Shown: one piece after another, positions 2,463 through 51,109 of the stretch
How the letters are laid out: the number at the start of each line of letters is the position of its first letter
Numbering within the stretch: position 1 is the stretch's first letter
Translations under genes and position numbers: made by a program
DNA from: an uncultured virus (IMG/VR IMGVR_UViG_3300038345_000393)
Lineage: Duplodnaviria; Heunggongvirae; Uroviricota; Caudoviricetes
Virus record (IMG/VR): IMGVR_UViG_3300038345_000393
DNA: 64,000 nt
Reading direction: 5' to 3' (one strand)
The notes under the pieces: generated by a model
The model's input: the letters and a program-made list of their open reading frames with translations, nothing else
What the model was told of the DNA's origin: nothing
Database searches by the model: none

Positions 2463-3758
2463 TTATAAGTTAGGAATATCTGGTGGGAAATATGAAGCAA
2501 ATTCAACAAAAGAAGATGCCTTTTCCCAACTTGGAGTATCTGACTTCCAAATGAGCGTATCTTTTTTGACTTGCCCAGAAGAAATCATTTCTATTATCTT
2601 TCCACCCTCAAATGGCCCAAAAGGTTGCCCGTTTTGCGCTATATGATAAGTTGGCTTATTTTGTGGGATTGGAGGTGGCACACTATTAACATTGGGATTC
2701 AATGAATTATCTAATGTATTAGCAATGTTTTTACCAACCGCGGACCCTACAGCGATGCCCGCCATAAGAGTCATTGGGTTAAAGCCAGCATTTCCACTAC
2801 CATCACCCATATTGATATTGCCAGCGCCATTTTCTCCCATTTTGCCTAAAGCGTCAGCACTAGCGACACCAACTTCGCCTTTAATTTCAGTTTGATAAGC
2901 GCCAAGATTTTGTTGTTTAGTAGACATATGTTGAGCATATTGTCCTTCTTCTCTTTGGATACGCAACTGTTCTTCATAGTGTTCAATGTTTGCCTGAGCT
3001 TGTCTTGTGACGATATCCTTTGTGATGCGTTTTAATTCAATATAGGTCTCGCTTTCTTTATCAACCTCAATATTGACAATATCAAAAGACTTCATTCTTA
3101 TACCGAAATTGTCTTTTAATTTTTTAGTTAGCTCATCCTCGATTCTGCTCGAAATAGTTGAAATACTAGTTTCAATAGAAATGGCTGGAATGTTTTGTTC
3201 ACGACAAATATTGGTAACTGCACCCTTAATATATCTAGTCACGCTAGCATTGACTTTATCTTTTAGTTCATCAAGAGTTAGTGTCTTTAAACGATAAAAC
3301 TTAATAAAGTTGCGATAATCTTCAATTTCAAAAGTTAGAGTTCCTCTCACGCTAACAGGAATGGGAAAATCAGGATAGCGAGGATCAACAACATCAAAAT
3401 AAGGGACACCAAACCTAATTTGCTCTGCTTGTGCAAGATTAATAAAATATACTTCCGCCTGAAAAGGTGTATCCCCTTCGTACCACAAACCAATTATTTT
3501 AGAAAGAACTGGAAGGTTCATTGAGGACAGTCTACCGTCATAAGGACCATTAATATAGTCTTCACCGTTATGATATACAAAAACTGCTACTTCACCATTT
3601 TTAACACGAATAACAGAACTTGATCTAATGGCATTTTCCCTTTTTAGTTCACCTTCTTGATAACCGTTTGGATGCCACTTCCAAATTAAATAATCTTTTT
3701 CATCACAGCGGATTACATCAGCAAACCCGCCCTTTTTGGGTTTATTAAATATGGACAT
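2463..3758 (-). CDS. SPFH/band-7-like protein with C-terminal GYF_2 (DUF4339)-like domain
   Basis: VRVKNGEVAVF and AEVYFINL SPFH-like segments; C-terminal YHIAQNGQPFGPF...TLIWK...WEKA. Confidence 0.75.
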   Translation of the reverse strand: MSIFNKPKKGGFADVIRCDEKDYLIWKWHPNGYQEGELKRENAIRSSSVIRVKNGEVAVFVYHNGEDYINGPYDGRLSSMNLPVLSKIIGLWYEGDTPFQAEVYFINLAQAEQIRFGVPYFDVVDPRYPDFPIPVSVRGTLTFEIEDYRNFIKFYRLKTLTLDELKDKVNASVTRYIKGAVTNICREQNIPAISIETSISTISSRIEDELTKKLKDNFGIRMKSFDIVNIEVDKESETYIELKRITKDIVTRQAQANIEHYEEQLRIQREEGQYAQHMSTKQQNLGAYQTEIKGEVGVASADALGKMGENGAGNINMGDGSGNAGFNPMTLMAGIAVGSAVGKNIANTLDNSLNPNVNSVPPPIPQNKPTYHIAQNGQPFGPFEGGKIIEMISSGQVKKDTLIWKSDTPSWEKASSFVEFASYFPPDIPNL

Positions 3759-4650: not shown

Positions 4651-6021
4651 CTATTTATTATTTTTTATAACAATAAGAGGGATTATGCCACTACAAGAAA
4701 TGCCATCGATTGGTGTGCTGGCAAATATTATGTTGTTTCCTATTGAACCGGTTACTGTTATATCTGGCTCATAATAAGGGTCTTCTGTTATGATTTCTTC
4801 TTTAATACACCAGCTAAATAAGCCATCATTGTTATATCCAAGAGCGCCTTTTGTTCTAGCGTATTCACTACTACCACAAACCACTCCTGGCCAATAAAGA
4901 GCGTGAGGGATAAAAACATAATCGGTGCTAGACATATTGTATATATCAGCGGCCATCAATTTATCTTTGCAGTCATAAAAAGCCTTGTTATAAAAATCAT
5001 TATTTAACCAATTTCTAATATATGATTCTTTATAATCATTTGATTCGTCATCAAAAATGATGCCATCATCTAAAGTAAGGTCAGCAAATAAGATAATCTC
5101 GCCATTATCAAACTCACCTATTGTTTTCCACTTAATTGGTTCAACTTTAAACCAATAATAATTGTCGTTTTTCACTATTTCTCCATTGTTAAAAGTTAGT
5201 GATGTAATAGCCCCATTGGCTATTTGATCATCTGTTGGAGTCGATACCTTAGCTTTGACACATTCATAATATTCATCATTATATTTGGTGTAACCAAATT
5301 CATTTCTAGCACTTATGCTATTTAAGGTGCCTATTAAATCTTCATCACTTACTAAAGATTGAGGGTAATATCCTAATGTATGGGTTATTTCTTTTGGTAC
5401 AGTCCAATTAATGTTATTAATTATTTCTTCGCTAGAATTGATGATTTTATTATTTTTTGTATTACTAATGATAGCTAAAGTAATACCAACTGCTAAAGAG
5501 GCAGAAGATATAGCGGTAATGATTGGTAGAACTATTAATAATGTTTTTGTTTTCTTTTTTTCTTTTTGAATATCTTCCGGTTTATAGTTTAAGCAAAAAT
5601 ATAAAACATCTAATCTTGTTTTAAATAATTTGCCTAATAATATGAATTGCTCAATGGATGGAAAAGAAGAACCCTTTTCGTATTTGATTAGTTGATTAAC
5701 ATTACACGATATAGCGTCAGCAACTTGTTTTTGTGTTAGATTCTTTTTCTTTCTTAGTCTTTTGATATTATTAGCAAACTCAGCTGCGTTAAAAGATAAT
5801 TCGTCGCATAAATTATTCTTTTTAATGTTTTTAGAATAAATAATGCCTTCTAAATCAATTTGTAAAAGGGAAGCATATTTGCCTAGTACTGATAATGATG
5901 GACTGTTCTTACCACTTTCCCACATGGAAACAAGTTGAACAGTGTAGCCTAAAGCATTAGCAATATCGCTTTGTGATAAACCCGCTTCTATTCTTCTTTC
6001 ATACAAAAATGATTTTTCCAT
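4651..6021 (-). CDS. membrane-anchored tandem XRE HTH protein with C-terminal DUF6273-like domain
   Basis: Two HTH_3 repeats (LSQSDIANALG...WESG; LTQKQVADAIS...YEKG), one TM helix, YWFKVEPIKW and SYIRNWLNNDFY. Confidence 0.7.
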   Translation of the reverse strand: MEKSFLYERRIEAGLSQSDIANALGYTVQLVSMWESGKNSPSLSVLGKYASLLQIDLEGIIYSKNIKKNNLCDELSFNAAEFANNIKRLRKKKNLTQKQVADAISCNVNQLIKYEKGSSFPSIEQFILLGKLFKTRLDVLYFCLNYKPEDIQKEKKKTKTLLIVLPIITAISSASLAVGITLAIISNTKNNKIINSSEEIINNINWTVPKEITHTLGYYPQSLVSDEDLIGTLNSISARNEFGYTKYNDEYYECVKAKVSTPTDDQIANGAITSLTFNNGEIVKNDNYYWFKVEPIKWKTIGEFDNGEIILFADLTLDDGIIFDDESNDYKESYIRNWLNNDFYNKAFYDCKDKLMAADIYNMSSTDYVFIPHALYWPGVVCGSSEYARTKGALGYNNDGLFSWCIKEEIITEDPYYEPDITVTGSIGNNIIFASTPIDGISCSGIIPLIVIKNNK

Positions 6022-11924: not shown

Positions 11925-12280
11925 GAAAAATAAAAACCATCCACAATGAAAACACCACAATGTAGTTAACGGATGGTACTTCATTCCAACCAAACTTAAC
12001 TACTGGTGTTACATCCACTCCTTGGATGGCCACATGCTCAATATTGCTATTGTGTGGAGCGTAGAACTATACCCCCATCTAGACCTTGTCCCACATCAGG
12101 GTGGAGAGTTATCTAAGATTACTAATATAGCCCCTGGGCGATACTTTCCACATTGGTAGAAGCTAACACACCTCCTACCAGATTAATTGGCTGGGTTCAG
12201 ACTTCGTTTTAGTCAAGTTTACACCTACTCCAGAAGTATTTCATTCTTCGGTCTTTTGGCGCGGCATCTGACCATGCATT
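11925..12280 (-). ncRNA. candidate ~350-nt structured RNA or regulatory leader
   Basis: GC-elevated intergenic stretch with many helices (12154-62/12172-80, 12039-52 with GCAA loop on - strand, 12012-17/12023-28) ending in a terminator-like stem 11936-42/11971-77 and T-run. Confidence 0.55.
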
Positions 12281-19290: not shown

Positions 19291-20028
19291 TTACCCCGCT
19301 ATTTTAACAATATATTCGTAAAGATATTCTTCAACTTCATCTTCATCCATAATACTGACGTGACTTACATTGCTGAGACAAGATAAATGGGTGAGAACTC
19401 TATGAACTTTTTTAGTAGGAAGCGTTGTATTGCTTTCTTTTTCGTATTTAATAACAGCCTTGATAAAAGCTAATCTAGCTATCTCATTATCAACGAAAGT
19501 GTAAAATACCATACGTCTTAAACCAGCATGGCCTAAAACGTACTTAGTGTATTCAAATCTATCATCAAGCCTATCATCTATTGAAAGAGAAGCTAATAAA
19601 TATAATCTTCCGACAATATTCCTCGCCATAGATCTTCTAACGTCCCCTTCAAAAAATAAAGTTCCGGAAAGGGATTTAATTTTTTCGTTTTGATTTAATA
19701 AATAACTCAAATAGTATTTGTAGCCGAATTGAAGTGCAAAAGCAGGCATGAATTTGTTGTTACAAATAACAGCTTTGCCTAAGCCTGCAGATTCAAATGC
19801 TTCATAAAGCAATTTAGCGTTATCAAAATCGTATTTTCTAGGTTCGTCATTGTCATATTTGAGTTCAATATCAAAATCATAGGCGGTGTTTTGGAGTTTG
19901 TGCTCTTTAAAAAAATCATCAAGCCATTCATTTGAGGCAGGATTTTCCCTAATCATCTTTTCAAAAGATTCAATATTGTTTGTCGCAAATGAAACGCTAT
20001 CGTCTGTAAAGCTCTTAAATTTTGCCAT
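19291..20028 (-). CDS. DUF6339-like protein
   Basis: DFDNAKLLYE and RSMARNIVGRLY resemble DUF6339 as recalled; sits in GHKL/MTase operon. Confidence 0.45.
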   Translation of the reverse strand: MAKFKSFTDDSVSFATNNIESFEKMIRENPASNEWLDDFFKEHKLQNTAYDFDIELKYDNDEPRKYDFDNAKLLYEAFESAGLGKAVICNNKFMPAFALQFGYKYYLSYLLNQNEKIKSLSGTLFFEGDVRRSMARNIVGRLYLLASLSIDDRLDDRFEYTKYVLGHAGLRRMVFYTFVDNEIARLAFIKAVIKYEKESNTTLPTKKVHRVLTHLSCLSNVSHVSIMDEDEVEEYLYEYIVKIAG

Positions 20029-20030
20029 AA

Positions 20031-20915
20031 TTATTCTCCCTCATCCATCTTGTTTACCCAGTTCTTAACGAAAGACAAAAGATTGTTTATCGGTGTTTTT
20101 ACTAGCAACTGAGCAGCTTTGTAAGGCTCAATATCACTTTCAGTCGGATCTTGCTTAATTATTTTCTTATACTTTTCAGTAATGACTTTGTACCATTTTT
20201 TATCTTCGTATTGTGCATTAAATTCATTCATTTCTTCAGAATCAGGTGATTCGTGCATTTGCCTTAAAATATCAGTTAAAGCAGGAATAATGAAGGATGC
20301 TAGAATTACTTCAGATTTACGATTTTGAACTTTGTCGTATAGTTTTTTCATTTGCTTAGGAACAATGAAGTAGATAATGTCATCGTTAAGCTTATATGTC
20401 ACCGGACTAAGAGGATCCAAATTAATATTTTCTTGGAATTGAAAAATGGAGGTTTTTCTTCCTTCTTTCTTATGTTCTAGAGGAACTGTAACTTTTGAAC
20501 TAGTACCAATATCGTTATACTTTTCAACCCAATAATTATCCCCAGCCCATTCTTTTGTCAAATCCGAGTTCGTGTAAGAAAAAGATTCTTCAACTATAAG
20601 ATGGGCGGTAAATTCTACTCCTTTTTCGACATCCATTTTGTTAACATAAAACTTGATGTTTTTAGCATCATACGGAACTTTTTTAGAAATGTTTAATCCA
20701 ACAGGCTGACAGAAAAGTTTCACTACCACAGCTAGTTTTTTATCTAAAATCAGTTGGTTTATTTCTTGGTTGTCGATAGAATAGGTAGCTTCAAAACATA
20801 TCTGTTTATCGCTTACGCCTCTTGCGACCTTTAAATCGAATTTTGTTTTTTTATAATTGTTGAGTTCCTGGCTCAAATAAGGAAATGATGAGGTTTGTTG
20901 CTTATTCGTTTGCAT
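20031..20915 (-). CDS. hypothetical protein coupled to the GHKL ATPase
   Basis: 294-aa ORF overlapping upstream gene; SFPYL start, beta-rich N-half, WY near C-terminus. Confidence 0.65.
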   Translation of the reverse strand: MQTNKQQTSSFPYLSQELNNYKKTKFDLKVARGVSDKQICFEATYSIDNQEINQLILDKKLAVVVKLFCQPVGLNISKKVPYDAKNIKFYVNKMDVEKGVEFTAHLIVEESFSYTNSDLTKEWAGDNYWVEKYNDIGTSSKVTVPLEHKKEGRKTSIFQFQENINLDPLSPVTYKLNDDIIYFIVPKQMKKLYDKVQNRKSEVILASFIIPALTDILRQMHESPDSEEMNEFNAQYEDKKWYKVITEKYKKIIKQDPTESDIEPYKAAQLLVKTPINNLLSFVKNWVNKMDEGE

Positions 20916-22914
20916 TGATATTTACCTCCCACATATAAATTTTGTGCTCTTCGAGTTTCACTGATATTTTGTAAAGAGCTCCTTTTTTCATAGTATCCAT
21001 GTAAACTTTATTATCCTTAGTGGTGAGCTGTTTGCCATTCAAGGTAGCCTCAACAACATTGATTGGCTCATTTTCATCTCCTGAACCAGATTTAAGTATT
21101 TCTATTTCGACATCCTCGCCAGATTTAGAAGGAGAGAAAGAAAGTTCAAACAACCCTTCTTCTAAATTTTTAACAGGCATTTTTGAAGATATTGTTGAGA
21201 CGGGTTTTCTTATCATCATTTTTTGTCCATCTTCATCTATGACAACGTTGTTATCATCTTGGCCAGGGTGTGGGTCGTTACCTTTCCCTTTATTTTTGCC
21301 TTCTGGATGAGAACCTGAATCTGTTCCGTCGTCAGTTTCAATGCCTTTTCCTTCTTCATAGCCTTCAGCTTCTCCCTCTGGATCTGGTTCTGTTGCCTTA
21401 GTTTTTTTAGGTTTTCTTTTTTTAGAAGGTTCTTTCTTCTTAATTGGTTCAAAAACTATTTCATCTGTTGGAAGACCAGAATCTTCATTTGCTGTGCCGT
21501 CCAATGTGTCTGAATTGTTGTCTGAATTCCACCCTTCATCACTAGCCCAATCAAAATCAGAAGATTTGCCATAGTCTTGTTCTTCTATTTTTTCAAGTTC
21601 TGATTCAGCAAAATTCTTAACCGAATCAATCGCAGCATAAATCACATCTTTAGAATAATTTGTGTCTCTATATTTCAGCTTCGACCATTTTTTATGAGAG
21701 GCATCTTCAACAGATTTCAATTCTTCACATAATTCTTTACCTTTAATAAGCAAAATGCCTGTATATGGAATAGAACTGTTTGTTTTAAAAATTTCAATTC
21801 TCATTTTTGTTTTCCATCTGTATGAATAGACTCTATTTAAAGCTGTGCTGCTATTAACAGAAATAAGCATATTTAATTCTCTGTCGCCACCAGTATCTTT
21901 TACCGCAGTAGCAAAAGGATGATTGAGTGTTTTATATAGTTCTTGTGCAATTGACATTGTGCTATCTTTTTCAAAATACATTGGGTTTAAAATATTTGTG
22001 TACAAGTTGGCCTTCTTAGTTTCCAAAAAATCATTGTGGATTGAATCACTTATTGTGACTTCCAAATCTCCATCATTAATAGCTGGTAAAAAACTAATGA
22101 TAGCCTCGCCCATCATTTTTGATGTCCACCCTTCTTCAGCCAAAAAGAAAGGGACAAAGATATCAGTACCATATTCATTTTCATTTCTAACATAATTAGG
22201 ATCGATATCATTAATTAATCCATTGTTTGGAGTATTCATTTCTTGAGCTTTAACTTCTTGACTAACACAATAGCCTATGCCTTGTGTCCAATCAGGGAAG
22301 CCTTTGCCGTCATCGTCAACGTCTTTTGCCACCAATCTGGCATAGCCAATATTTCCTTGTTCACCATCTATGGTTGACGTTGAAACAAATATTGTCCTAA
22401 TTGCAGAATTTAAGAAAATAGCTGCTTTGCCTAAACCCTTGGAACCGCCAGACCCATCTTCTTTAACATCTTTACCACTACCGCTAATAAAAGCAAACCA
22501 AGGCATTTGCCTTTCCATTGGAGTTGAAACGCCACATAAGCCCTTAGTGTTTTTATCTGAGATCCTGAGCCATGTTATACCTTTTGTTTGAGATTGAACA
22601 AAGCATTGAAAAATCCTATTCATCAACGCTCTTTCTTTTACTTCTGGTTTATCTTTTAATTTATCCCTATCAAGCCAATCTTTAACATAATCAAACAAAT
22701 ACTCATTTAAAGCTTTGAAAGAATTGGAGTCGGTCTTGAATAAAGAAAACTCTACACGTACAGGCTCATTACCGCTTCTAGCATCAAGCGAATTTTGGAT
22801 AACTTCTCTAGCAAGATTTCCAAGTGGATCATCACCAAAATCATCTTGCCCTAAATCTTGTTTGCCACCAGCGTTCCCTCTACGTGCAAGTGGCCAATAC
22901 CATGATAAACTCAT
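20902..22914 (-). CDS. GHKL (HATPase/MORC-like) ATPase
   Basis: LAREVIQNSLDA, LRISDKNTKGL, GGSKGLGKAA, GTDI; acidic/Gly-rich linker near the C-terminus. Confidence 0.8.
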   Translation of the reverse strand: MSLSWYWPLARRGNAGGKQDLGQDDFGDDPLGNLAREVIQNSLDARSGNEPVRVEFSLFKTDSNSFKALNEYLFDYVKDWLDRDKLKDKPEVKERALMNRIFQCFVQSQTKGITWLRISDKNTKGLCGVSTPMERQMPWFAFISGSGKDVKEDGSGGSKGLGKAAIFLNSAIRTIFVSTSTIDGEQGNIGYARLVAKDVDDDGKGFPDWTQGIGYCVSQEVKAQEMNTPNNGLINDIDPNYVRNENEYGTDIFVPFFLAEEGWTSKMMGEAIISFLPAINDGDLEVTISDSIHNDFLETKKANLYTNILNPMYFEKDSTMSIAQELYKTLNHPFATAVKDTGGDRELNMLISVNSSTALNRVYSYRWKTKMRIEIFKTNSSIPYTGILLIKGKELCEELKSVEDASHKKWSKLKYRDTNYSKDVIYAAIDSVKNFAESELEKIEEQDYGKSSDFDWASDEGWNSDNNSDTLDGTANEDSGLPTDEIVFEPIKKKEPSKKRKPKKTKATEPDPEGEAEGYEEGKGIETDDGTDSGSHPEGKNKGKGNDPHPGQDDNNVVIDEDGQKMMIRKPVSTISSKMPVKNLEEGLFELSFSPSKSGEDVEIEILKSGSGDENEPINVVEATLNGKQLTTKDNKVYMDTMKKGALYKISVKLEEHKIYMWEVNINANE

Positions 22915-23291: not shown

Positions 23292-23308
23292 AGGACATTT
23301 TTCGTCCT
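23292..23308. promoter_or_regulatory. palindromic operator-like site AGGAC-N7-GTCCT
   Basis: Matches the reverse complement of 24464-24480 at 13/17 positions. Confidence 0.45.
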
Positions 23309-23335
23309 TCCATCATTTTTAATAATGGTTTATCA

Positions 23336-23870
23336 TTGTTGTGCATTGGAACCCAGTGTATGCCATCTTGCTGATGGCTGGGGCCCAACCAAGTAAGGCA
23401 ATAATGTGGGATACTGCGTTAAAGTCAAGACCTCGTTAGTAATAACTAGGTATTCGGAACTAAAAAACCGCTTTGGTTGGTGGCGCGATACGCTCTTCGA
23501 TGTAAACAACTACCTGATAGGCACGACAAGTGGCTCCGTAGAAATACGTCCCGCGTCCAGATGTTAGGCTTGAGAACCTAATATCTCCGCTCTCGAAACA
23601 AGTGTTCGCTTTGATGGATGGTAACATCCTATAACTGTTTGGTAGGTACCATTAGGAGAACAGCGATATTTGATCAATAAATGAGAATATCATCTGCTGA
23701 AGCTCTCTGAAGGTTGGAAGGCAATTCAGATCCTTCCCTAGGTTACGGTTAGTAATAACCCATTCTGGAAGTATGAGGATCGCTACCTCTTACTCAGCCC
23801 AGCGTGCTAGTGTGTGAATAACAAATTAGAGTAAGTGTTGTAAGGTGAAGGCCTCCGATGCCTTTTTTAT
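23336..23870 (+). ncRNA. large ornate structured ncRNA candidate (~530 nt)
   Basis: GC-rich, no credible ORF, four GNRA-capped hairpins, long-range closing helices, AATAAT -10-like element upstream, terminator at 23848-23868. Confidence 0.75.
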
Positions 23871-23886
23871 TAAGTGAGGTATTAAA

Positions 23887-24123
23887 ATGAATAAATCTAA
23901 ATCAAAAGCAGTATACACAAATAAATGGCTTTCTAGAAATAAGCAACATTGGAAAGTTGACGAAGTTGATGGTGCTGAAGTAATTATCATCACCAAATTG
24001 GATAGTCCTAAAATTGTTTTTGATCGTGTCTATGAAATTAACAAAAAGCGCATTGCCACTAGAAAGGTTGCGATAAGAAATCTTTTATTAGCAATCAACG
24101 AAACTAAAAAGACATCCCGTTAA
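23887..24123 (+). CDS. small basic hypothetical protein
   Basis: GAGGT RBS, 78-aa ORF right after the ncRNA terminator. Confidence 0.6.
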   Translation: MNKSKSKAVYTNKWLSRNKQHWKVDEVDGAEVIIITKLDSPKIVFDRVYEINKKRIATRKVAIRNLLLAINETKKTSR

Positions 24124-24325
24124 GGATGTCTATTGCGGATACTCCGAAGAGTTCCGCGAAAGTATTAACGACGTCAATACTTCCTGTTCCTTCGTTTTCT
24201 ATGCGTCGGATATTTCTAACGCTATAGTACGTAAGGTCGGCTACGTCTTCCTGCGTCCAGTGTCGACTTAGCCTTAATTGCTTAATCGTTTTTCCAATTA
24301 AGCTTGTCTCAATCATTTTGCTCAT
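24104..24325 (-). CDS. XRE-family HTH transcriptional regulator
   Basis: IGKTIKQLR...WTQEDVADL...IRRIENEG; GGAGG RBS. Confidence 0.88.
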   Translation of the reverse strand: MSKMIETSLIGKTIKQLRLSRHWTQEDVADLTYYSVRNIRRIENEGTGSIDVVNTFAELFGVSAIDILNGMSF

Positions 24326-24504
24326 AAGTACCTCCTAATAAAAATAATTGAATTTTAGAAAAATCTTTTGCTTCGACCTGAGGTCTAATATGGAGGTGCT
24401 CTTAAATATGAGCAGAGTTATTCTATAGAACAGCAAAACAATAATCAAGGATTATTTGTAAAGCGGACAAAATGTGTCCTCTTTGTTTTGCAAAGGAAAA
24501 GGAA

Positions 24505-25965: not shown

Positions 25966-27171
25966 TTACTTACTAGATTCATTATCTTCTAAAGATTGTA
26001 ATTTGTCATGAAACAAAGATTTGAGTTCTTTTGTTTCTACGTTAGATAAAATATTTTTCTTACCGTAATGAGATAAGTATTGCTCGATGAAAGATATATC
26101 AAAGTACATGGTATTTCCTAGTTTAGTAGACACTATATCATGACCGCTTTTGTTAATTCTAACGGCGTCTTTCTTAAATACAGGATCATCATTAATAGTA
26201 TGTTCAATTACCATGTTCCTGAGCATAAAAACAGTAAAAACAGGATTATCTTCTTTTTCCATAAAAATAGGATTAGAAATATGTGATAAGAAAGAATTTT
26301 TAATAACTGGATGCATGCCATAATCAAATACAAATGTTGGTTCATTTGTCGTATCATCGGTTTTTTCTAAGAAATATTTAGCGTCCTCTTCCAAAATCTC
26401 ATCAAAATGCTTGGAGAGATTAGTTTTAGCGATGTCAACTTTCCTATTTTGATAAATGGCATCATTAGGAAGAGGCAAACCCAACAGTTTAGCAGTTAGT
26501 ATCTTATTTCTAATATTCCGTAAGAGCTTTTCTGGAATATGTGTTGGTAATGGATATTTTTTAGAGACTTTTTCAACAATTGTTCTTTCTAAAGTAGGTG
26601 CAAAAACAGTGGAAAAGCCCTCTTCATCATTATTAATAAACATTGTTAAGAATGGATAACCAAGGAGTATATTGCTTCCCGCAACACTTCTAATTCGCTT
26701 AACCATCATCCTATATATGAGGTCTGCATCATAAGCAAATATGTTGTGTCCTTCAATGCTCTTTTTATCAAAGATGCAAATATCGACATGATTATCTTTT
26801 TGTTCCAAGAAATCTTTTAATTCATAATGGAACGCTTGCAAATAAAGATAGATATCGTCATTTTTGCCAAGTCCTGGAATTAATTTATTAGCAATGATTG
26901 AAGCGACAATGGCTTCCACCGCTTCTTTTGATTCAAAATGATACCCCGCAAAATCCAAGTAATCAGAAAATGCTGAATTTTGATCAATGGCAAACGGATC
27001 GCCATCAGGTAAGAATTCTAAATCTTCTCTATCGTAAGAGAATGTCACACAGTTAGATAATTTATCTTTCCCGTTAGCAAAACTAATGCTTGTGATTTTG
27101 CCTTTGATTTCTGTAAATAATTGAATACGTGTATATCCAAATAAAAGAATGAAGTACTTATTATTTTTCAT
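25966..27171 (-). CDS. hypothetical protein, possibly a degenerate Hsp70/actin-like fold
   Basis: N-terminus loosely parallels DnaK (FGYT...NGKDKLSNCVTF); overlaps the MBL gene by 4 nt. Confidence 0.5.
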   Translation of the reverse strand: MKNNKYFILLFGYTRIQLFTEIKGKITSISFANGKDKLSNCVTFSYDREDLEFLPDGDPFAIDQNSAFSDYLDFAGYHFESKEAVEAIVASIIANKLIPGLGKNDDIYLYLQAFHYELKDFLEQKDNHVDICIFDKKSIEGHNIFAYDADLIYRMMVKRIRSVAGSNILLGYPFLTMFINNDEEGFSTVFAPTLERTIVEKVSKKYPLPTHIPEKLLRNIRNKILTAKLLGLPLPNDAIYQNRKVDIAKTNLSKHFDEILEEDAKYFLEKTDDTTNEPTFVFDYGMHPVIKNSFLSHISNPIFMEKEDNPVFTVFMLRNMVIEHTINDDPVFKKDAVRINKSGHDIVSTKLGNTMYFDISFIEQYLSHYGKKNILSNVETKELKSLFHDKLQSLEDNESSK

Positions 27172-28256
27172 AATGGTAACTCCTCATCATCTAATATTTG
27201 GACATTAAAATCGTAAGTATGGTCAGATAAATGGAAGGTATTCAAGATATCATCTTTCTTTTCGTCGTTATAGTGGCCCACTAAAACTTTTGTTTTTGAG
27301 GGGTCAAATTGTCTTAACATATATGCCAAATCAATAAAGCTGATATGAAGACCAACAATCCCATTGGCGTTAGTTTGCTTATTAAGTTTTTTACTAGATA
27401 CAGTTATTTGTTTTCTATTATCAGGTAAAGCATAGATTGATGAATCAAGTAATATTTCATCGGTAATAAATGGATCATAATTATATTTCTTCAAAATACT
27501 GAGATACCATTTAAGTTCGCTGGTAAAAACAATGCAGTATTTCTTATTTAATTTTGGAGATGAAATAAGTTTCTTTGAAAAGAAGATTATTTTTTCTGGC
27601 TTACAATAGAACTTGTTAAAACCTTTATTTAAGATGCTATCCCTTATTTCGTTAAAAGACTCATCTTTAAAGTTTTCGCTGTCTAAATAAGTGCCATCTA
27701 CGATGACATAGTCAACAGACTCGTTATCTGCTAAATCTAGCTGATACTGTCTATCACTATCGTTAGACGCATAATCAATATCGCCGGTATATAAGATTTT
27801 GCTCTCTTTGCATGAGAAATAAATCATTGAACTACCATATGTATGTCCAGAAGGGAAGATTTTAAAATAAGTATCTTTTCTCAATTTATATTTCTCAAAG
27901 AACAACACACCTTTAATTTTATGAAGCAATTCTCTAATCTTCTTAGTGCTTCTTTCATCCAAATTGACTCTAATTGCATTTTCAAAAATAGCAATAATTA
28001 AGTCTTTAGTCACATTGGATGCATATATTTCGCATTTGCTGTTAAGCAATGCTTCAACATATTGCATATTATATAAACCCATAAAATGATCAGAATGTTC
28101 GTGGGTGATAAAAATATAATCTAAATTTTTAACATCACTGATTGGAATATCATTACTACCAAAGTCAAAAGACACTAAAAGAGATGTGTTTTTATAGACA
28201 TAGGTAGTTATTTTATTTGATGAATCAGCTGTTCGATATGATTGTATGCTTGCCAT
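27168..28256 (-). CDS. MBL-fold metallo-hydrolase (beta-CASP-like nuclease)
   Basis: FDFG, THEHSDH, SGHTYGS, LYTGD, DGTY motifs. Confidence 0.85.
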   Translation of the reverse strand: MASIQSYRTADSSNKITTYVYKNTSLLVSFDFGSNDIPISDVKNLDYIFITHEHSDHFMGLYNMQYVEALLNSKCEIYASNVTKDLIIAIFENAIRVNLDERSTKKIRELLHKIKGVLFFEKYKLRKDTYFKIFPSGHTYGSSMIYFSCKESKILYTGDIDYASNDSDRQYQLDLADNESVDYVIVDGTYLDSENFKDESFNEIRDSILNKGFNKFYCKPEKIIFFSKKLISSPKLNKKYCIVFTSELKWYLSILKKYNYDPFITDEILLDSSIYALPDNRKQITVSSKKLNKQTNANGIVGLHISFIDLAYMLRQFDPSKTKVLVGHYNDEKKDDILNTFHLSDHTYDFNVQILDDEELPL

Positions 28257-31213: not shown

Positions 31214-32323
31214 TTAAGAAAATAATGAGTCGTTATGGTATACGACATTTATTTGTTTTTCGATTTCTAAAATGTCGTAAATATGTTCTCTCAAACAATG
31301 AACAACAGCATCTTGTAGTGGAGAGACACCATTGCCTTTAAACGAATGTCCATTATAAGTAAAGAACGCAGATGCTTCATCATAGTTCATTCTTAAAGCG
31401 AGCATAACTTTGAAACAATTCTTTTCATCAGGGACAATCCCTTTACCCCAGTTATAGTAAGATTTCTTGCCGCTTAGTTTAGCGGATTTTGCATCCTTTT
31501 TATATTCTCTATAGCCAAGATAATATTTTACTTCGTTGATTTTACTATTTTGAACTTTAACCGCTGAATACCTAGCTTTAATATAGGCATTTATATAATC
31601 TTTGGCGTTTTTAACATCACTCAATGGAACAAAAACATTTTTTCTATTTTCTTCATCTTCAAATAAACCGTATTGTTTTTTGGCACTACTAGAGTCTAAA
31701 AAGAAAGATTTTGGATAAATATACGAATTCCATTTTTTAAAAGTTGTGTGATCTTTAAAATAATTCATTGATTGTGCAAACAAGGCGTAATCGCGGTGAC
31801 GACCACCACCATCCATTTGTTCTACTTTGCGTTTTAACGACTTTAATTTATGGCGTAAATTCTCATCATCAAAGACTAAAATAAAATCAATTCCACCTAT
31901 GTGCTTTTCAAAAGAAGCGCACATGGAGTTAATCATGACATGAACGGCATTTTTATCATATCTATCATGTCCGGTGCCTATCATTGGAATCGCTAAACTT
32001 TTAAAGCCTTTTTCATGTGCGGTCATGAGGATATTACGTAGCGTACATTGAAAACCAGTCATATCTGGATCATCATCAAAATGCGGAGTTACTGCGTGAA
32101 TAATATACTTGGTAAATTGCAAATTATATTTTGGACTAACATACACTTCAGTCACACCAATTTTGCCATTTAATTCTTTAATCTTGTCACGCAAAATATC
32201 ACTATCCGCAGCATCAAGAATGGTTCGGCACAATGCACCTTGATGAGTTGTGACAATTCCTAAGTTATTAACAATAGCATCCGCAGAGACCGTTGTAATA
32301 TCGCCTTCAAAATATCTAGCCAT
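31214..32323 (-). CDS. macro domain protein with C-terminal helical/HTH-like domain
   Basis: GDITTVSADAIVN, YIIHAVTP, SLAIPMIGTG. Confidence 0.85.
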   Translation of the reverse strand: MARYFEGDITTVSADAIVNNLGIVTTHQGALCRTILDAADSDILRDKIKELNGKIGVTEVYVSPKYNLQFTKYIIHAVTPHFDDDPDMTGFQCTLRNILMTAHEKGFKSLAIPMIGTGHDRYDKNAVHVMINSMCASFEKHIGGIDFILVFDDENLRHKLKSLKRKVEQMDGGGRHRDYALFAQSMNYFKDHTTFKKWNSYIYPKSFFLDSSSAKKQYGLFEDEENRKNVFVPLSDVKNAKDYINAYIKARYSAVKVQNSKINEVKYYLGYREYKKDAKSAKLSGKKSYYNWGKGIVPDEKNCFKVMLALRMNYDEASAFFTYNGHSFKGNGVSPLQDAVVHCLREHIYDILEIEKQINVVYHNDSLFS

Positions 32324-34271: not shown

Positions 34272-35663
34272 TTAATTTTCATTTCTCATTGCCGCGATTT
34301 CTCTTTGCCATTCGTCTGAAGGTATATCAAATCTACAGAATTGTTTGTAAAAGATTAAATCAGCAATACCTGTATTACCATTTCTTTGTTTAGCTACAAT
34401 TACTTCTATATGTCTAACATCTTCAGGTAAATTGGTCTTTTTCTTGATTTTGTTATTTTCATATAAAGGATCATAAAGGAGAAGAATTACATCAGCGTCT
34501 TGTTCAATCGCACCAGATTCTTTAATATCCACCATCTTAGGTCTTTTCACTTCACCTTTAACGGAATCTCTGTTTAATTGAGCTACCGCTAATATGGCGA
34601 TATCTAAATCCTTGGCAAGTGCATGTAAACCTTGTGATATCTTACGCATTTCATCAACACGCGAATCACTTTTCTTGCCACCTACTACTTTAACAATGCT
34701 CATATGATCCACAACCACTAGACCTAGTTCTGGGTATTTTTCTATTAATTGTCTACATTTAGTCTCTATATCTATAAGACTATTAGCACCATCATCAATG
34801 AAGATTGGTAATGATATTATTTCACTACCAGCATGGTTAACTTTAACTTTATCTATATCACTTAAATTACCAGTCATGATTTTGTTTAAAGAAACATTAC
34901 TAGCCATAGCAATCATACGTTTTGCTAATGATTCCGCAGTCATTTCTAATTCAAATATGGCTACAGTTGTGCCACTTCTCGCAGCTTTATATGCCATATT
35001 AAGTGCTAAAGAGGTTTTACCAACTGACGTTCTAGCACCAACAATTGTGACTTCACCTCTTTGAAAACCATTCGTGAATTTGTTTACATTAGTGAAACCA
35101 CTGGTAATGCCTGTGGTGAAACCATCACCACTGTTCTTTTGATTATAGATTTGTAATACTGCTTCATTTGCTACTGTTTCAATAGATTTAAAAGAAGATA
35201 CTCTATTGTTTTTAGTAGCGTCCTTTATTCTTTGTTCAGAATCTTTAATAAAATCTTCTATAGAATCTATTTGAGTATTTAAATAATCATTATTAATATC
35301 TCTTATAGTTGTTAAGAGATTCCTGAGATTAGAATTATCTTTCACTATATTTATATAGAAATCTATAGAAGAAAGAGCAACGACTTTGTCTGAACATTCT
35401 TTTAGATAATCTACTCCTCCTATATCATCTAATACATTCATTAGCAAAAGTTCTTCAGTAACTGTATAGATTTCAACATCTATTTTTTTGGTATTTAAAG
35501 ATAATATGGCTCTATAAATTAATTGATGTTTCCCTTCATAAAAATCAGTTTCCTCTAATGCTGACATGATTTTATAAAGGGCATCATTTGATATCATTGC
35601 ACTTCCTAATACCACAGTTTCAGCATCGTGATTAAAAGGAAGATCATTAGTCCTTTTCCTCAT
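34272..35663 (-). CDS. dnaB: replicative DNA helicase DnaB
   Basis: LPFNHDAETVVLG, GARTSVGKT, VVDHM, AQLNR, ESGAIEQDAD, AKQRNG. Confidence 0.95.
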   Translation of the reverse strand: MRKRTNDLPFNHDAETVVLGSAMISNDALYKIMSALEETDFYEGKHQLIYRAILSLNTKKIDVEIYTVTEELLLMNVLDDIGGVDYLKECSDKVVALSSIDFYINIVKDNSNLRNLLTTIRDINNDYLNTQIDSIEDFIKDSEQRIKDATKNNRVSSFKSIETVANEAVLQIYNQKNSGDGFTTGITSGFTNVNKFTNGFQRGEVTIVGARTSVGKTSLALNMAYKAARSGTTVAIFELEMTAESLAKRMIAMASNVSLNKIMTGNLSDIDKVKVNHAGSEIISLPIFIDDGANSLIDIETKCRQLIEKYPELGLVVVDHMSIVKVVGGKKSDSRVDEMRKISQGLHALAKDLDIAILAVAQLNRDSVKGEVKRPKMVDIKESGAIEQDADVILLLYDPLYENNKIKKKTNLPEDVRHIEVIVAKQRNGNTGIADLIFYKQFCRFDIPSDEWQREIAAMRNEN

Positions 35664-35777: not shown

Positions 35778-36629
35778 TTATTCTTTGAATTTCTTACTAC
35801 CTATTGTTTCATGGAATCCTTTAATCTGTCTTTCAACTTCAGGATCAATCATGAAGTATAAGTATTTCTCTTCAAAATCTGAAACTTTATCTCTTTGATA
35901 AAAAGCCTCTGCGATTGCTCCCGCCATCGCGCCAGTGGTATCGCAATCCCCACCAATAGCAACACAGTTTCTGATTGTGTCTTCTAATGAGTCAGATATT
36001 AAGAAACAATAGATGGCTTGAGGGACACTCTTTTGACATATTTCAGAGAATTCATAGTTTTCCACTAAATCAGCGTAATCTAAAGAAGCAATTTCTGGAT
36101 AATAATCATTTACCATTCTTTCTTTAATTTGCTCTTTAGAAGCGCCGTTACGCGCTAAATAGATAGCCATGGCTACTGCTTCAGCGCCTTTAATACCTTC
36201 TGGATGGTTATGGGTTATTTCAGTTACCGTTTTAGAGAGAATCTTTACTTCTTCTTCGTTTTTTGCCATCCATCCTACTGGAGATATACGCATAGCACTA
36301 CCATTACCATATGAGTTATATGGTTCTGGGTAATAGTTATGTTCATAAGCATACTTACACCAATGGAAGAACATTCCACCAAAACCAGCACCTCTATCTT
36401 TTTTCCAGGTAAGAACAAATTCTTTAACTAAATCTTTTTTAATTGCTTCTAATGATTCGTTATCAAAACTAAACGGATAATGATCCACTAAAACTTTGGC
36501 GACCGCTAAAGTTAAAAGAGAATCATCAGTCATTCTCATTCGATTGTCAAAAATATTAAATTCTTTTCTTTTGATTGGATGAAATTCATAAAGTGAACCC
36601 ACCATATCTCCTATAATTGCACCTAACAT
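35778..36629 (-). CDS. ADP-ribosylglycohydrolase
   Basis: MLGAIIGDMVGS, TDDS, GNGSAMR, GGDCDT. Confidence 0.93.
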   Translation of the reverse strand: MLGAIIGDMVGSLYEFHPIKRKEFNIFDNRMRMTDDSLLTLAVAKVLVDHYPFSFDNESLEAIKKDLVKEFVLTWKKDRGAGFGGMFFHWCKYAYEHNYYPEPYNSYGNGSAMRISPVGWMAKNEEEVKILSKTVTEITHNHPEGIKGAEAVAMAIYLARNGASKEQIKERMVNDYYPEIASLDYADLVENYEFSEICQKSVPQAIYCFLISDSLEDTIRNCVAIGGDCDTTGAMAGAIAEAFYQRDKVSDFEEKYLYFMIDPEVERQIKGFHETIGSKKFKE

Positions 36630-37523: not shown

Positions 37524-38975
37524 CTACCCAAGAACGGATAGGATTTCGGAGGACTTTAAGTGTTTCTTTTCAAAGAGAAGTTCACCTAACTTTTTAATTT
37601 GATTAGCGTGCTCTTTGATATATTTAGTAGCTTCTTTTTCGCATTTTTTTAGTAAGCGTTCAATTTTGCGCTCCATCTTTCTTCGTTTAGTAGCGGTTTC
37701 GATTCTTGAACCTTGTCTTACAGGAGGTAAAGTTTCCCAAGCGGAAGAATAACCACACATATTTATCATATTGTAGGCATTAATTCTCGCTCTTTGGAGG
37801 TCATCTTCACAACCTCTAGAACCTCTACCAAAGAAAATCTTTTGAGCAAGAAGACCCGCCATTGAGATTTTAATATCAGCGATAACTTTATCATATGGCC
37901 AGAAGCCTCTTTCCACTTCTTTGGCGGTAAAGGCGCCTGAGGCACCACTGATATTGATACGATTGATTAAGAAGTACTGTGGATAAGCGTGAGCCATACA
38001 AGCGTGCGAAGCTTCGTGAATTGCCACTTCGATATTATCTTCTTCTGGAGAATCTTTAACTCTATCAGTAATGTTATAGATGGATTTAAAGAGCATATCA
38101 CTAGTGATATTTTCAAAGCCGTTTCTTAAGACTAAGTCATTAACAACCGCTTTTACACCAGCACAAGAGATACCGTTTAGAGATAACGCCACTTCTTCTT
38201 CATCAAAGTCTTCTGGAATATTAACGCCAAATTCTTTTAAATGAATTTTTAATAGTTCTAAAGCTTCTTCTCCTGATGGATATGGAATCTTAATGAGTTT
38301 TTCTAATCGACCATTACGTAATAATGGATCTGGTATTTCTCTAATATAGTTAGTCGCCGCAAGCACTAAAATGTCATCAGAAGATTCAACACCATCAAGA
38401 TTTTCTTGAAGAGCTCTAATCACTCTTCTTTCTCTATTGATTAATAAATCTAATTCATCAATAACGACTACTGCGTGACCTGTTTCTCTCGCTTTAGCGA
38501 ATGTTTGAGTAATACCAGCAACGATATTAGTTTCATCACCTTTAAGAATAAAGACAGGTGCATCAACGCATCTAATGATTTCTTTAATTAGTAAGGATTT
38601 ACCATTACCTGGTTCACCAAAAAGAATGACGCCTTTAGGAATGGATACACCTTTGGCTTTAAGTTCTTTAGAACGTTTAAACCAATCAATAACGTCTAAT
38701 AGTTCTTTCTTTTGATTAACGTGACCAATAACTCTTTCTAAAGGTTTTTCACCTTCATTTAAGCCGTGGTTATATATGAGTTCATAACATTGTTTGTTAT
38801 TATTACTATTTTCTTCTTTTTTATCTTCAGAGTCTTTTTTATTTTCTTCTTGTTCATAAGCACGATGCATTTCTCTAATTTGTGCTTCGATTTCTTCAAT
38901 ATCAAGTGGTTCGATATCTTCGAAATCATCATCGTCTTCAATAATGTCATCGTTTAATGTGTTTTTATCTGCCAT
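37524..38975 (-). CDS. FtsH-like AAA+/M41 metalloprotease without TM anchor
   Basis: GEPGNGKS, IDELD, AATN, RNGRLE, HEASH, GCEDDLQRA; acidic soluble N-terminus. Confidence 0.85.
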   Translation of the reverse strand: MADKNTLNDDIIEDDDDFEDIEPLDIEEIEAQIREMHRAYEQEENKKDSEDKKEENSNNNKQCYELIYNHGLNEGEKPLERVIGHVNQKKELLDVIDWFKRSKELKAKGVSIPKGVILFGEPGNGKSLLIKEIIRCVDAPVFILKGDETNIVAGITQTFAKARETGHAVVVIDELDLLINRERRVIRALQENLDGVESSDDILVLAATNYIREIPDPLLRNGRLEKLIKIPYPSGEEALELLKIHLKEFGVNIPEDFDEEEVALSLNGISCAGVKAVVNDLVLRNGFENITSDMLFKSIYNITDRVKDSPEEDNIEVAIHEASHACMAHAYPQYFLINRINISGASGAFTAKEVERGFWPYDKVIADIKISMAGLLAQKIFFGRGSRGCEDDLQRARINAYNMINMCGYSSAWETLPPVRQGSRIETATKRRKMERKIERLLKKCEKEATKYIKEHANQIKKLGELLFEKKHLKSSEILSVLG

Positions 38976-44696: not shown

Positions 44697-44789
44697 ATTC
44701 CCATCGTTCAAGCTTTAGCACCTTACTACGATTTAGCAGGTTGCTGGTGGATCTCTGGGCTTGTCCCTAACCACTCTCTTTATGGATAT
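44697..44789 (-). promoter_or_regulatory. SAM-I (S-box) riboswitch, short-P4 variant
   Basis: - strand: CCATAAAGAG-AGTGGTTAGGGACAAGCCC-AGAGATCCAC-CAGCAACC...AAGGTGCTAA...GATGG follows the SAM-I layout. Confidence 0.88.
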
Positions 44790-49212: not shown

Positions 49213-49374
49213 TTAAATATCTTCGTCATTTTCTTCTGTTAATTCATGAAGAATTTGCATGATTAATTCTCTTTCTTGTTTTAACCTAATGCCTTCTCTA
49301 ATGAGAAGAACAAGAGCGACGATACAAACAATGGCTAACAAAAGAAGGGCAATACTTGCAATCGCCCTAGCCAT
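49213..49374 (-). CDS. 53-aa single-TM protein (not in ORF track)
   Basis: MARAIASIALLLLAIVCIVALVLLIREG...EENDEDI; overlaps the stop of the HslV-like gene. Confidence 0.55.
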   Translation of the reverse strand: MARAIASIALLLLAIVCIVALVLLIREGIRLKQERELIMQILHELTEENDEDI

Positions 49375-50020
49375 TACCTTTCACTTCCTTATCTTTCTTC
49401 TTGTGGTCACCGAGATACTTGCCCTCATTTTTCTCGGTGACGATTTCGAACTCCCCAGTCTCAGTATCCGTAAGTATGATTGGATAGTCCACGTAAATAT
49501 CACAAGCCGCACTGGACTTGATTGCTTTTACGATCCTTTCCTTAGGACTTTGTCCTTCGGTAGAGAGCAAGCTACCAATCGCTTGATCAGAGCCACTACC
49601 GATGGCGACATAGTCTTCGACTTCGATAACACTCTTATCTTGACCAATACAGTAAAGTTGGTCTTGATAAGCGAATAGGAAGCTTGATTCAAGACAATCA
49701 GTCTTTTCCCCGTCCTTAAGGAAGTTATACCTCGCTAGTTCACTAACGATGTCTGGGACAACTTTCTTGACCACGAAGTCAAAACTGATGTGCTCTTTGT
49801 AAATGTTATATTCGGTCACTAAGTCAGGCATAAGTCTAATGACGTTAGCGTCTCTAAACATACCTACTTGTGCCATCAAGCAATGCGGAGCGCCAATCAC
49901 TCTCCACACTTTGTAGTTGTTTTCGTTTTTAAGTGTTGTTCTTGTGCCACCTCTTGTGACTTGGGAATCCGCACCGATGTAAACCTTACCATTTTCTTTA
50001 ATTGCTACTATTACGCTCAT
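49367..50020 (-). CDS. Ntn-hydrolase (HslV/proteasome beta-like) peptidase
   Basis: MSVIVAI...YIGADSQVT...K and YVAIGSGS. Confidence 0.75.
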   Translation of the reverse strand: MSVIVAIKENGKVYIGADSQVTRGGTRTTLKNENNYKVWRVIGAPHCLMAQVGMFRDANVIRLMPDLVTEYNIYKEHISFDFVVKKVVPDIVSELARYNFLKDGEKTDCLESSFLFAYQDQLYCIGQDKSVIEVEDYVAIGSGSDQAIGSLLSTEGQSPKERIVKAIKSSAACDIYVDYPIILTDTETGEFEIVTEKNEGKYLGDHKKKDKEVKGNG

Positions 50021-50038
50021 ACATTTCTCCTTTATTAA

Positions 50039-51109
50039 TTACTCTGCGTTTATGATGTTAGTGTGACCTAAATACTGGTCACTAACGGCCAATAGGTCAC
50101 ACTCTTTTATCTCTGATAACGTATCGACTGAGATGTCATCTGAATCGTTAAGTCGTCTTGCTTGAAGCTTGATTATATCTTCAAACAAATTACGAACTGA
50201 ACGTCCATTTCCACTCAAATTGTCGATACCATTGAACATTTCCTTGACTCTCTTTTTAGCCTCTTTATCGAGGTGATAGTCGTTGTCCTTTAAGAAGGAC
50301 ATGAAAATGTCCAATAACTCCTCATTAGAGTAGTCATCAAATGAGATGATGGTCTTGAAACGAGAACTAAGACCAGGATTAGCATCAAGGAAATCCTGCA
50401 TCTCGTTTTTGTATCCCGCGACAATGACCACTAAATCATTACGATGGTCCTCTAAGAGTTTTGTTAACGTATCAAGCGCTTCATATCCATATTCATCGTT
50501 ATCATTACGACATATGGCATATGCTTCATCGATGAATAAGACTCCACCGATAGCGCTCTCCACCACCTTTTTAGTCTTTTGAGCGGTTTGACCAGCATAT
50601 GATGCTACTAAACCACTGCGATCAACTTCGACTAGTTTATTAGTGGGTATGACACCTAAAACCTTATATATGTCTGCAAGCATACGTGCTACGCTAGTCT
50701 TACCAGTTCCAGGATTACCAACAAACACTAGGTGTCTGGTAGTTTGAGGAACTTTAAGCCTAAACGCTTTACGTAACTTATTGACATTGATTTCACAAAC
50801 CATGTCATTAATTTGCTCTTTGATACGAGATAAGCCAATCATATGATTAAGCTCATCAAGGTATGGTTTTAAGAGAGCATCCACTCGTTTCTTATCACTA
50901 GCGACGTAATGAACAGTGAATTGGTCCATTAATTTATCGTCGTTAAGGATAAGATGACGATACATGATAGAATATGTGGTAAAGGTTTTGATCTCTTCAC
51001 CAAACTTACATTTGATGAATTCATCATCCTCAATGTCCACGATTACACCATTACCATAATCACGATGGTAAACGCTTTGGTTGATAAGTTTCTTTAAATC
51101 AAATTCCAT
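50039..51109 (-). CDS. CbbX/SpoVK-type AAA+ ATPase
   Basis: HLVFVGNPGTGKT, GGVLFIDEAY, NPGLSSRF, GNGRSVRN. Confidence 0.9.
   Translation of the reverse strand: MEFDLKKLINQSVYHRDYGNGVIVDIEDDEFIKCKFGEEIKTFTTYSIMYRHLILNDDKLMDQFTVHYVASDKKRVDALLKPYLDELNHMIGLSRIKEQINDMVCEINVNKLRKAFRLKVPQTTRHLVFVGNPGTGKTSVARMLADIYKVLGVIPTNKLVEVDRSGLVASYAGQTAQKTKKVVESAIGGVLFIDEAYAICRNDNDEYGYEALDTLTKLLEDHRNDLVVIVAGYKNEMQDFLDANPGLSSRFKTIISFDDYSNEELLDIFMSFLKDNDYHLDKEAKKRVKEMFNGIDNLSGNGRSVRNLFEDIIKLQARRLNDSDDISVDTLSEIKECDLLAVSDQYLGHTNIINAE

Follow-up and report, generated by a model that had tools for sequence, protein, structure and literature searches.

Identity of the RNA

Which RNA is encoded around positions 23,336 to 23,870 of a 64,000-nucleotide stretch of DNA catalogued as an uncultured virus (hereafter the window), and what decides when it is made? 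A sequence-only reading had proposed that the + strand encodes a large and ornate non-coding RNA, naming ROOL as a candidate and a new class as a possibility. The ROOL family (RF03087) is the single Rfam match at the locus (envelope 23328-23874, + strand), with 203.9 bits against a gathering cut-off of 99.1 and an E-value of 1.5e-44, and the match covers the complete model (positions 1-574 of 574). Together with covariation among its relatives, this match bears out the description: the locus encodes a real RNA, and it is a full-length copy of a known family. A new class is refuted because the Rfam match is full-length and above the cut-off, which is the outcome that the sequence-only reading had itself named as decisive against novelty.

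23343..23868, + strand: ROOL RNA, ~526 nt (full Rfam model plus covariation)

Among the Rfam matches listed for the 64-kb window, none is to OLE, GOLLD, HEARO, group I/II introns or RNase P, and no tmRNA is found there by Rfam or by a separate tmRNA/tRNA scan, in agreement with the earlier remark that signatures of tmRNA, RNase P and group II introns were lacking. The RNA is also GC-rich, as had been noted (44.6% GC vs. 32.7% across the window), and has no credible + strand ORF, the sole + frame of at least 50 aa inside it being a 53-aa GTG frame. The GNRA and other hairpins that had been named are all found, by eye, where they were placed. In length, the RNA is close to the 520-nt ROOL reported from L. 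salivarius (PMC5643018), and it has helices, pseudoknots and a variable linker in common with ROOL as previously described (RF03087; Weinberg 2017, PMC5737381; Cousin 2017, PMC5643018; Kretsch 2025, PMC12286853). Six of the 24 sequencing runs listed are labelled as RNA, with word shares of 0.13-0.24, shares that are alone no evidence of expression.

Taken alone, the RNA adds another copy to a catalogued family, and the novelty lies in its operator and regulon context. Here the earlier reading caught the RNA but overlooked both a palindrome (23293-23307) and an XRE gene (24104-24325). Several ROOL cages have been solved, yet the function, partner and regulator of ROOL are unreported in the literature searched; no regulator is named in the titles and abstract openings covered, a set in which subscription journals are mostly missing. 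With a candidate regulator, an operator of 15 bp and a putatively co-regulated Ro60-fold gene, the timing and purpose of ROOL become directly testable.

Covarying fold and predicted cage

Folding of the single sequence is modestly better than chance (z -2.23; 2 of 100 shuffles fold equally well). Covariation, on the other hand, is strong across 28 relatives, which keep the nested multi-junction fold of ROOL. In the 28-row alignment, a 137-pair structure has 96.2% of its cells paired and 76 of the 137 pairs change on both sides, with none of 500 shuffles matching the real covariation and slid controls reaching 35-44% paired; these values are biased in favor of the structure, which was picked on the same alignment, and relatedness inflates the shuffle test.

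23343..23349, + strand: closing helix, 5' strand, partner 23855-23861 (93% paired; two-sided change in 3 of 7 pairs)
23863-23868, + strand: 3' U-run after the closing helix
23571..23595, + strand: pseudoknot 1, loop 23571-23575 with joiner 23591-23595 (97.9% paired)
23607..23665, + strand: pseudoknot 2, 23607-23610 with 23662-23665 (two-sided change in 4 of 4 pairs)
23537..23548, + strand: apical hairpin, P7 in env-120 numbering by our own mapping (role as given in PMC12286853 and PMC12990946)
23666..23700, + strand: variable unpaired linker between the 5' and 3' halves, an unalignable stretch among 28 copies

Two of the long-range pairings drawn from the single sequence do not survive this comparison. 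The helix 23377-23382/23798-23803 has no two-sided change and its arms pair elsewhere: 23378-23382 partners 23352-23356 (100% paired in the 28-row alignment), and 23799-23802 partners 23765-23768 (24 two-sided cells). The end pairing 23336-23345/23815-23824 is paired in just 48% of cells; 23331-23336 is the -10 box of the promoter, and the ends pair instead through the closing helix 23343-23349/23855-23861. Of the GNRA hairpins, the one at 23435-23446 is present in the window but belongs to an insertion that only three of the 28 rows share.

ROOL has been described with three pseudoknots (PMC5737381); in the 28-row alignment two covary clearly, and the third is without confident recovery. Pseudoknot 1, in which two pairs switch from G-C to A-U in 8 of 28 rows, would correspond, in our own mapping, to the intermolecular kissing bridge B4 (L8 with J6/8) of Kretsch et al. 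ROOL RNAs form hollow cages in several solved structures, with the equivalent of the linker inside the cage (PMC12286853), and by homology the ~526-nt RNA would very likely assemble into a cage free of protein. An octamer appears likelier than a hexamer for this predicted cage because the apical hairpin 23537-23548 is present (as deduced from PMC12990946); in our alignment, this hairpin is a gap in the hexamer-forming L. salivarius ROOL.

Hosts and genomic context

The subclade to which we assign the window ROOL was split from other ROOLs by BLAST, where its members show about 71-79% identity to the window copy; over all copies the identity is 67-82%, with 171-218 bits where scanned. A pattern in the 3' sequence retrieved 13 genome, 2 viral and 28 metagenome loci. 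Relatives occur in draft genomes of 1.0-2.3 Mb titled Bacilli, Bacillales, Erysipelotrichaceae, Mollicutes and Anaeroplasmatales, and the labelled metagenomes with window DNA, among those listed, are almost all from bovine or other gut. Judged by these relatives, the window ROOL is one of a subclade that is tRNA-free and found in Bacilli with small genomes.

The usual published context of ROOL is a prophage or a tRNA cluster (PMC5737381, PMC12286853), although copies outside prophages have already been described (PMC5737381). That the window merely holds an ordinary prophage-borne, tRNA-linked ROOL, as this precedent would suggest, is hardly credible: the window lacks tRNAs and matches none of 50,697 phage records, none of its scanned ORFs belongs to a named phage structural family, and of the 16 subclade copies scanned one has a tRNA within 1 kb, vs. 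8 of 9 non-subclade ROOLs (~1 kb). In contrast to other ROOLs, the subclade is without tRNA or phage context and has a conserved operator and an XRE partner.

A neighboring XRE gene

24104..24325, - strand: XRE (HTH_3) gene, 73 aa, candidate regulator, convergent on ROOL
24110..24131, - strand: terminator-like hairpin over the XRE 3' end
23887..24123, + strand: orphan ORF between ROOL and XRE, 78 aa, with homologues in the same slot of loci L004, L005, and L045

Among the best 120 of 232 XRE homologues, the putative recognition-helix residues are 98-100% conserved, except at one position. The protein has no sequence match in the PDB at E 0.001, and viral contigs and plasmids return just partial or generic HTH matches.

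Of the 36 distinct subclade ROOL copies, window included, 25 have the XRE gene at -0.7 to +3.3 kb; of the 11 copies without a nearby XRE, six have a flank below 2.1 kb, one is partial, and four have a flank above 3 kb. The XRE gene is downstream of none of the nine confirmed non-subclade ROOLs (three with less than 1.3 kb of flank). Across 151 genomes of one family, XRE occurs in 11, ROOL in 11 and both in 10, with both exceptions at contig ends; the ROOL counts were made by BLAST, which misses distant ROOLs, and joint presence in draft genomes is inflated because neighboring genes drop out together. When the search starts from XRE, ROOL adjoins 5 of 9 new loci and is on another contig in three more genomes.

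Carriers are scattered in a quick DnaB tree of the window and 60 genomes, namely the 12 carriers and 48 non-carriers picked from the high scorers, with 11 changes needed, at least 8 of them forced, and the distances of ROOL and XRE agree weakly (rho 0.35, p 0.017). The window DnaB (34272-35663) sits on a long branch, shares at most 53% identity with the DnaB proteins of the family genomes, and might be an additional copy borne by an island. It is 98% identical to that of loci L020 and L022, where ROOL is ~77% and DUF2130 47% identical, and the ROOL segment therefore seems to have been exchanged.

The L. salivarius ROOL also has an HTH neighbor, LSL_1884, but this gene is co-directional, has no such operator, and gives no alignment with the window XRE, by which kinship of the two is rejected. 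Deletion of the L. salivarius ROOL, with or without this unrelated neighbor, is described as having no growth phenotype (PMC5643018).

The gap between ROOL and XRE ranges from ~10 bp to 2.2 kb and holds varied cargo (L001, L011, L017, L031, L036, and window 23887-24123): M13 peptidase and TIR genes are found, as are unassigned membrane-type ORFs and the 78-aa orphan, and the gap resembles a hotspot for insertions. The orphan has 11 matches including itself, with no family found and Atlas scores below 0.8. Two ROOL copies, each with its own operator, are present in L002 (2873-3425 and 9554-10105) and in genome G156 (L005 and L057); in L002 the two are separated by 6.7 kb, with 5' halves that are nearly identical.

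Candidate operator and promoter

23293..23307, no strand: palindrome GGACA-N5-YGTCC, candidate XRE operator, centered 43 bp 5' of the inferred RNA 5' end
24465..24479, no strand: second copy of the palindrome, centered 147 bp upstream of the XRE start
23331..23336, + strand: -10 box TATCAT (TATACT/TATAAT in relatives), with no good -35 at 16-18 bp and no TG extension

The palindrome, which is often lengthened by GA and TC, matches the window twice (23293 and 24465) vs. 0.02 matches expected. It stands upstream of all 32 subclade ROOL copies that have at least 89 nt of flank (30 of them exact), and in 30 subclade copies its center is at -43 to -47. It is missing from 10 control regions, comprised of eight confirmed non-subclade ROOLs, L. 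salivarius and one unconfirmed locus, in which the best score is 4.3, vs. at least 19.3 in the subclade. Because its arms lack compensatory change and an A-T pair is broken in several copies, the palindrome is read as a DNA site and not as an RNA hairpin.

Exact sites are rare (only 1-4 per genome in 10 genomes), and a 17-base form matches 10 of the 11 genomes with ROOL and 12 of the 140 others, against 6 of 151 for the reversed control. As a predictor of ROOL, the palindrome alone fails: its 14 sites in the 12 non-carrier genomes are mostly within ORFs, none with ROOL. Universal autoregulation of XRE is likewise rejected, since the site is upstream of the XRE gene itself in only 7 of 32 loci, from ~4 lineages.

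In 27 of 30 ROOL promoters, the palindrome center lies 31-32 bp before the -10 box. The best -35 in these 30 promoters matches at most three of six positions in 26 and four of six in the other four, and none has a TG extension. Transcription would start near 23343, as inferred from the sequence. The RNA had been credited with its own promoter and terminator: the 3' U-run is present, and the promoter is visible by comparison of relatives but invisible to a consensus scan, which finds no + strand promoter at the locus. Of the 30 ROOL promoters, 16 have a TTGAC just ~6 bp upstream of the -10 box, a motif that is degenerate in the window (23319-23324); at this position it is one helical turn too close for a -35, and it resembles an operator half-site.

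The XRE leader

24326..24413, - strand: XRE leader, 5' arm pairs with the gene's own ribosome-binding site and start codon

The leader duplex has -11 to -21 kcal/mol in 27 loci, vs. a median of -7.5 and a best value of -13.3 for 29 other window genes, and the cognate leader arm beats the non-cognate median in 21 of the 27 loci. Since the XRE protein has no sensor domain and the leader helix lies over its ribosome-binding site, a switch at translation is suggested: with about even chances, the helix may keep XRE low until some signal throws the switch. Pairing of ROOL in trans with the XRE leader gave no signal (12 of 19 better than the non-cognate median).

The palindrome precedes a Ro60-fold gene in a second order

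In the order of genome G155 (301 genomes), the subclade ROOL occurs in 3 genomes, after three matches of 24-26 bases were discarded as chance, and an XRE homologue in 12, which include all 3. Three of these homologues were aligned and are 33-37% identical to the window XRE. In all of the best 10 second-order loci, the operator is found directly after XRE (8 by pattern, and 2 degenerate ones by eye). The operator is followed in turn by a DUF2828/DUF7788 gene in 9 of the 10 and by ROOL in the remaining one. It is also upstream of XRE itself in 3 of the 10. Operator and -10 box are spaced by 31-32 bp in 10 of 10 second-order promoters, of which 6 have a best -35 of four matches in six. The leader duplex is weaker here, and beats every shuffle in 1 of 10 loci.

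The AlphaFold model of one DUF2828 protein (pLDDT 91.8) has Ro60 as its top Foldseek matches (E 1.4e-8, TM 0.61-0.63; ring plus vWA fold), with no sequence match of the protein in the PDB. At one further site, the operator precedes a Sir2 gene. XRE and operator are thus adjacent where ROOL is absent, ROOL and operator are adjacent where no XRE is nearby, and ROOL can fill the slot of the Ro60-like gene. The two are not obligate partners, because DUF2828 occurs in 3 of 151 first-family genomes but in 0 of the 11 ROOL carriers there, and 9 of 12 second-order XRE carriers have no ROOL by BLAST; a universal ROOL-DUF2828 pairing is thus rejected.

A Y RNA was sought beside the Ro60-fold gene: 2 of 10 loci have a closed stem plus U-run, and the Y RNA motif GNCGAAN0-1G is in no leader. 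No Rfam match precedes the gene in L149 or L151. Non-coding leaders of ~150-390 nt stand before the Ro60-fold gene (L059 1760-1920; L149; L163-L172), and the two that end in a closed stem and U-run could be a Y-like RNA or an attenuator. In L151, a Staphylococcus-1 RNA (5219-5344) and an integrase fragment follow the Ro60-fold gene.

Activation or repression

The RNA is a member of the ROOL family with a covarying fold, and ROOL, XRE and operator are associated three ways. As a whole, the best explanation, which we consider probable, is that the ROOL gene is controlled by the neighboring XRE protein. An XRE dimer would very likely bind the palindrome, and it would probably activate the ROOL promoter, a reading suggested by the poor -35 and by the fixed distance between the site and the -10 box. 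Lambda cI at PRM and the C proteins of restriction-modification systems are activating XRE proteins, and the present case is like these in its small HTH_3 protein, its dyad centered near -43, and its weak -35. Unlike these, it would act on a large non-coding RNA or on a gene of Ro60 fold, and a minority of loci have the site in front of the regulator gene itself.

Many XRE proteins repress, and the site spans about -50 to -36, beside the -35 position, such that XRE could instead be a repressor abutting the -35 region, with ROOL off until the protein is lost. The promoters with four of six -35 matches (4 of 30 for ROOL, 6 of 10 in the second order) also speak for this alternative. We consider it unlikely, given that the -35 is at three of six or below in 26 of 30 ROOL promoters with no TG extension, that the operator spacing is fixed within 1 bp across two orders, and that a repressor silenced at translation would leave the promoter open. 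Activation by XRE is thus the preferred reading.

Defense genes in the neighborhood

19291..22914, - strand: PDC-M33 A/B/C candidate defense genes, beside ROOL elsewhere only in L004

Further left of the PDC-M33 genes, for which no literature was found under that name, are two methylases, a LlaJI-type McrBC and GmrSD. With restriction-modification, McrBC, GmrSD and PDC-M33 genes in one window, ROOL and XRE could be passengers of a defense island, with an anti-phage or functionless ROOL and a palindrome read by another factor. Conflict-type families within 4.5 kb at 11 of 19 loci (96 of 155 ORFs scanned; no background control) would fit, as would an extra palindrome before a different XRE in genome G078. 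However, the defense neighbors differ from locus to locus, leaving no fixed defense partner, and 8 of the 19 loci have none; the other XRE of G078 has just distant matches (32-46%) in 3 of 5 carriers; the palindromes in 12 of 140 non-carrier genomes mark no common target; and XRE-operator adjacency is kept where ROOL is absent. The passenger explanation is accordingly quite improbable in our estimation, and control of ROOL by XRE is retained.

A possible RNA-damage regulon

In the second order, a Ro60-fold gene stands behind this XRE-operator unit, and from this we infer a role for ROOL that is somewhat doubtful but worth stating: ROOL could be made within a response to RNA damage or for RNA quality control, holding or shielding RNA. 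The Sir2 gene behind one operator is also counted as a pointer in this direction, and ROT/TROVE proteins are described as a platform for RNA repair (PMC7824862). This functional step is a hint, and the weakest part of the mechanism. More speculatively, the whole may be an inducible RNA-damage regulon of these gut Bacilli, in which opening or cutting of the leader helix frees XRE to activate either a Ro60-like ring or a ROOL cage from the same promoter slot; the cage might then be an equivalent of Ro60 made wholly of RNA, a holder of RNA that is damaged or misfolded. No literature linking ROOL with Ro60 was found.

The closest known arrangements of this kind are bacterial Ro60/Rsr with its Y RNA and the RNA repair operon under RtcR (PMC4201824; PMC7790460), in which a Ro60-fold ring likewise has a dedicated regulator and the regulon includes a non-coding RNA. 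Here, by contrast, the predicted regulator is an XRE protein, the promoter is of sigma-70 type, the ring protein is DUF2828/DUF7788, with 10-16% identity to Ro60 structures, and the non-coding partner found is ROOL.

Other features of the window and related loci

Several further elements occur in the window. A COG3943 RNA motif (11952-12063, - strand, 86.3 bits) lies between the LlaJI-type and GmrSD genes, and a SAM riboswitch (44698-44788, - strand) heads a 139-aa ORF; SAM riboswitches are also back-to-back with ROOL in L002 (2652-2741) and L050 (6465-6592). The window further encodes an SPFH protein (2463-3758), a metallo-beta-lactamase-fold nuclease (27168-28256), a Macro protein (31214-32323), an ADP-ribosylglycohydrolase (35778-36629), an FtsH-like protein of 483 aa (37524-38975), and a proteasome-like and AAA pair (49367-51109). 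The Macro and ADP-ribosylglycohydrolase genes recur beyond XRE in several relatives. Elsewhere, three cow-rumen-1 RNAs are near an XRE in L048 (2083-2759), and a group I intron match (L029, 10020-10211) is inside a tRNA cluster beside a non-subclade ROOL.
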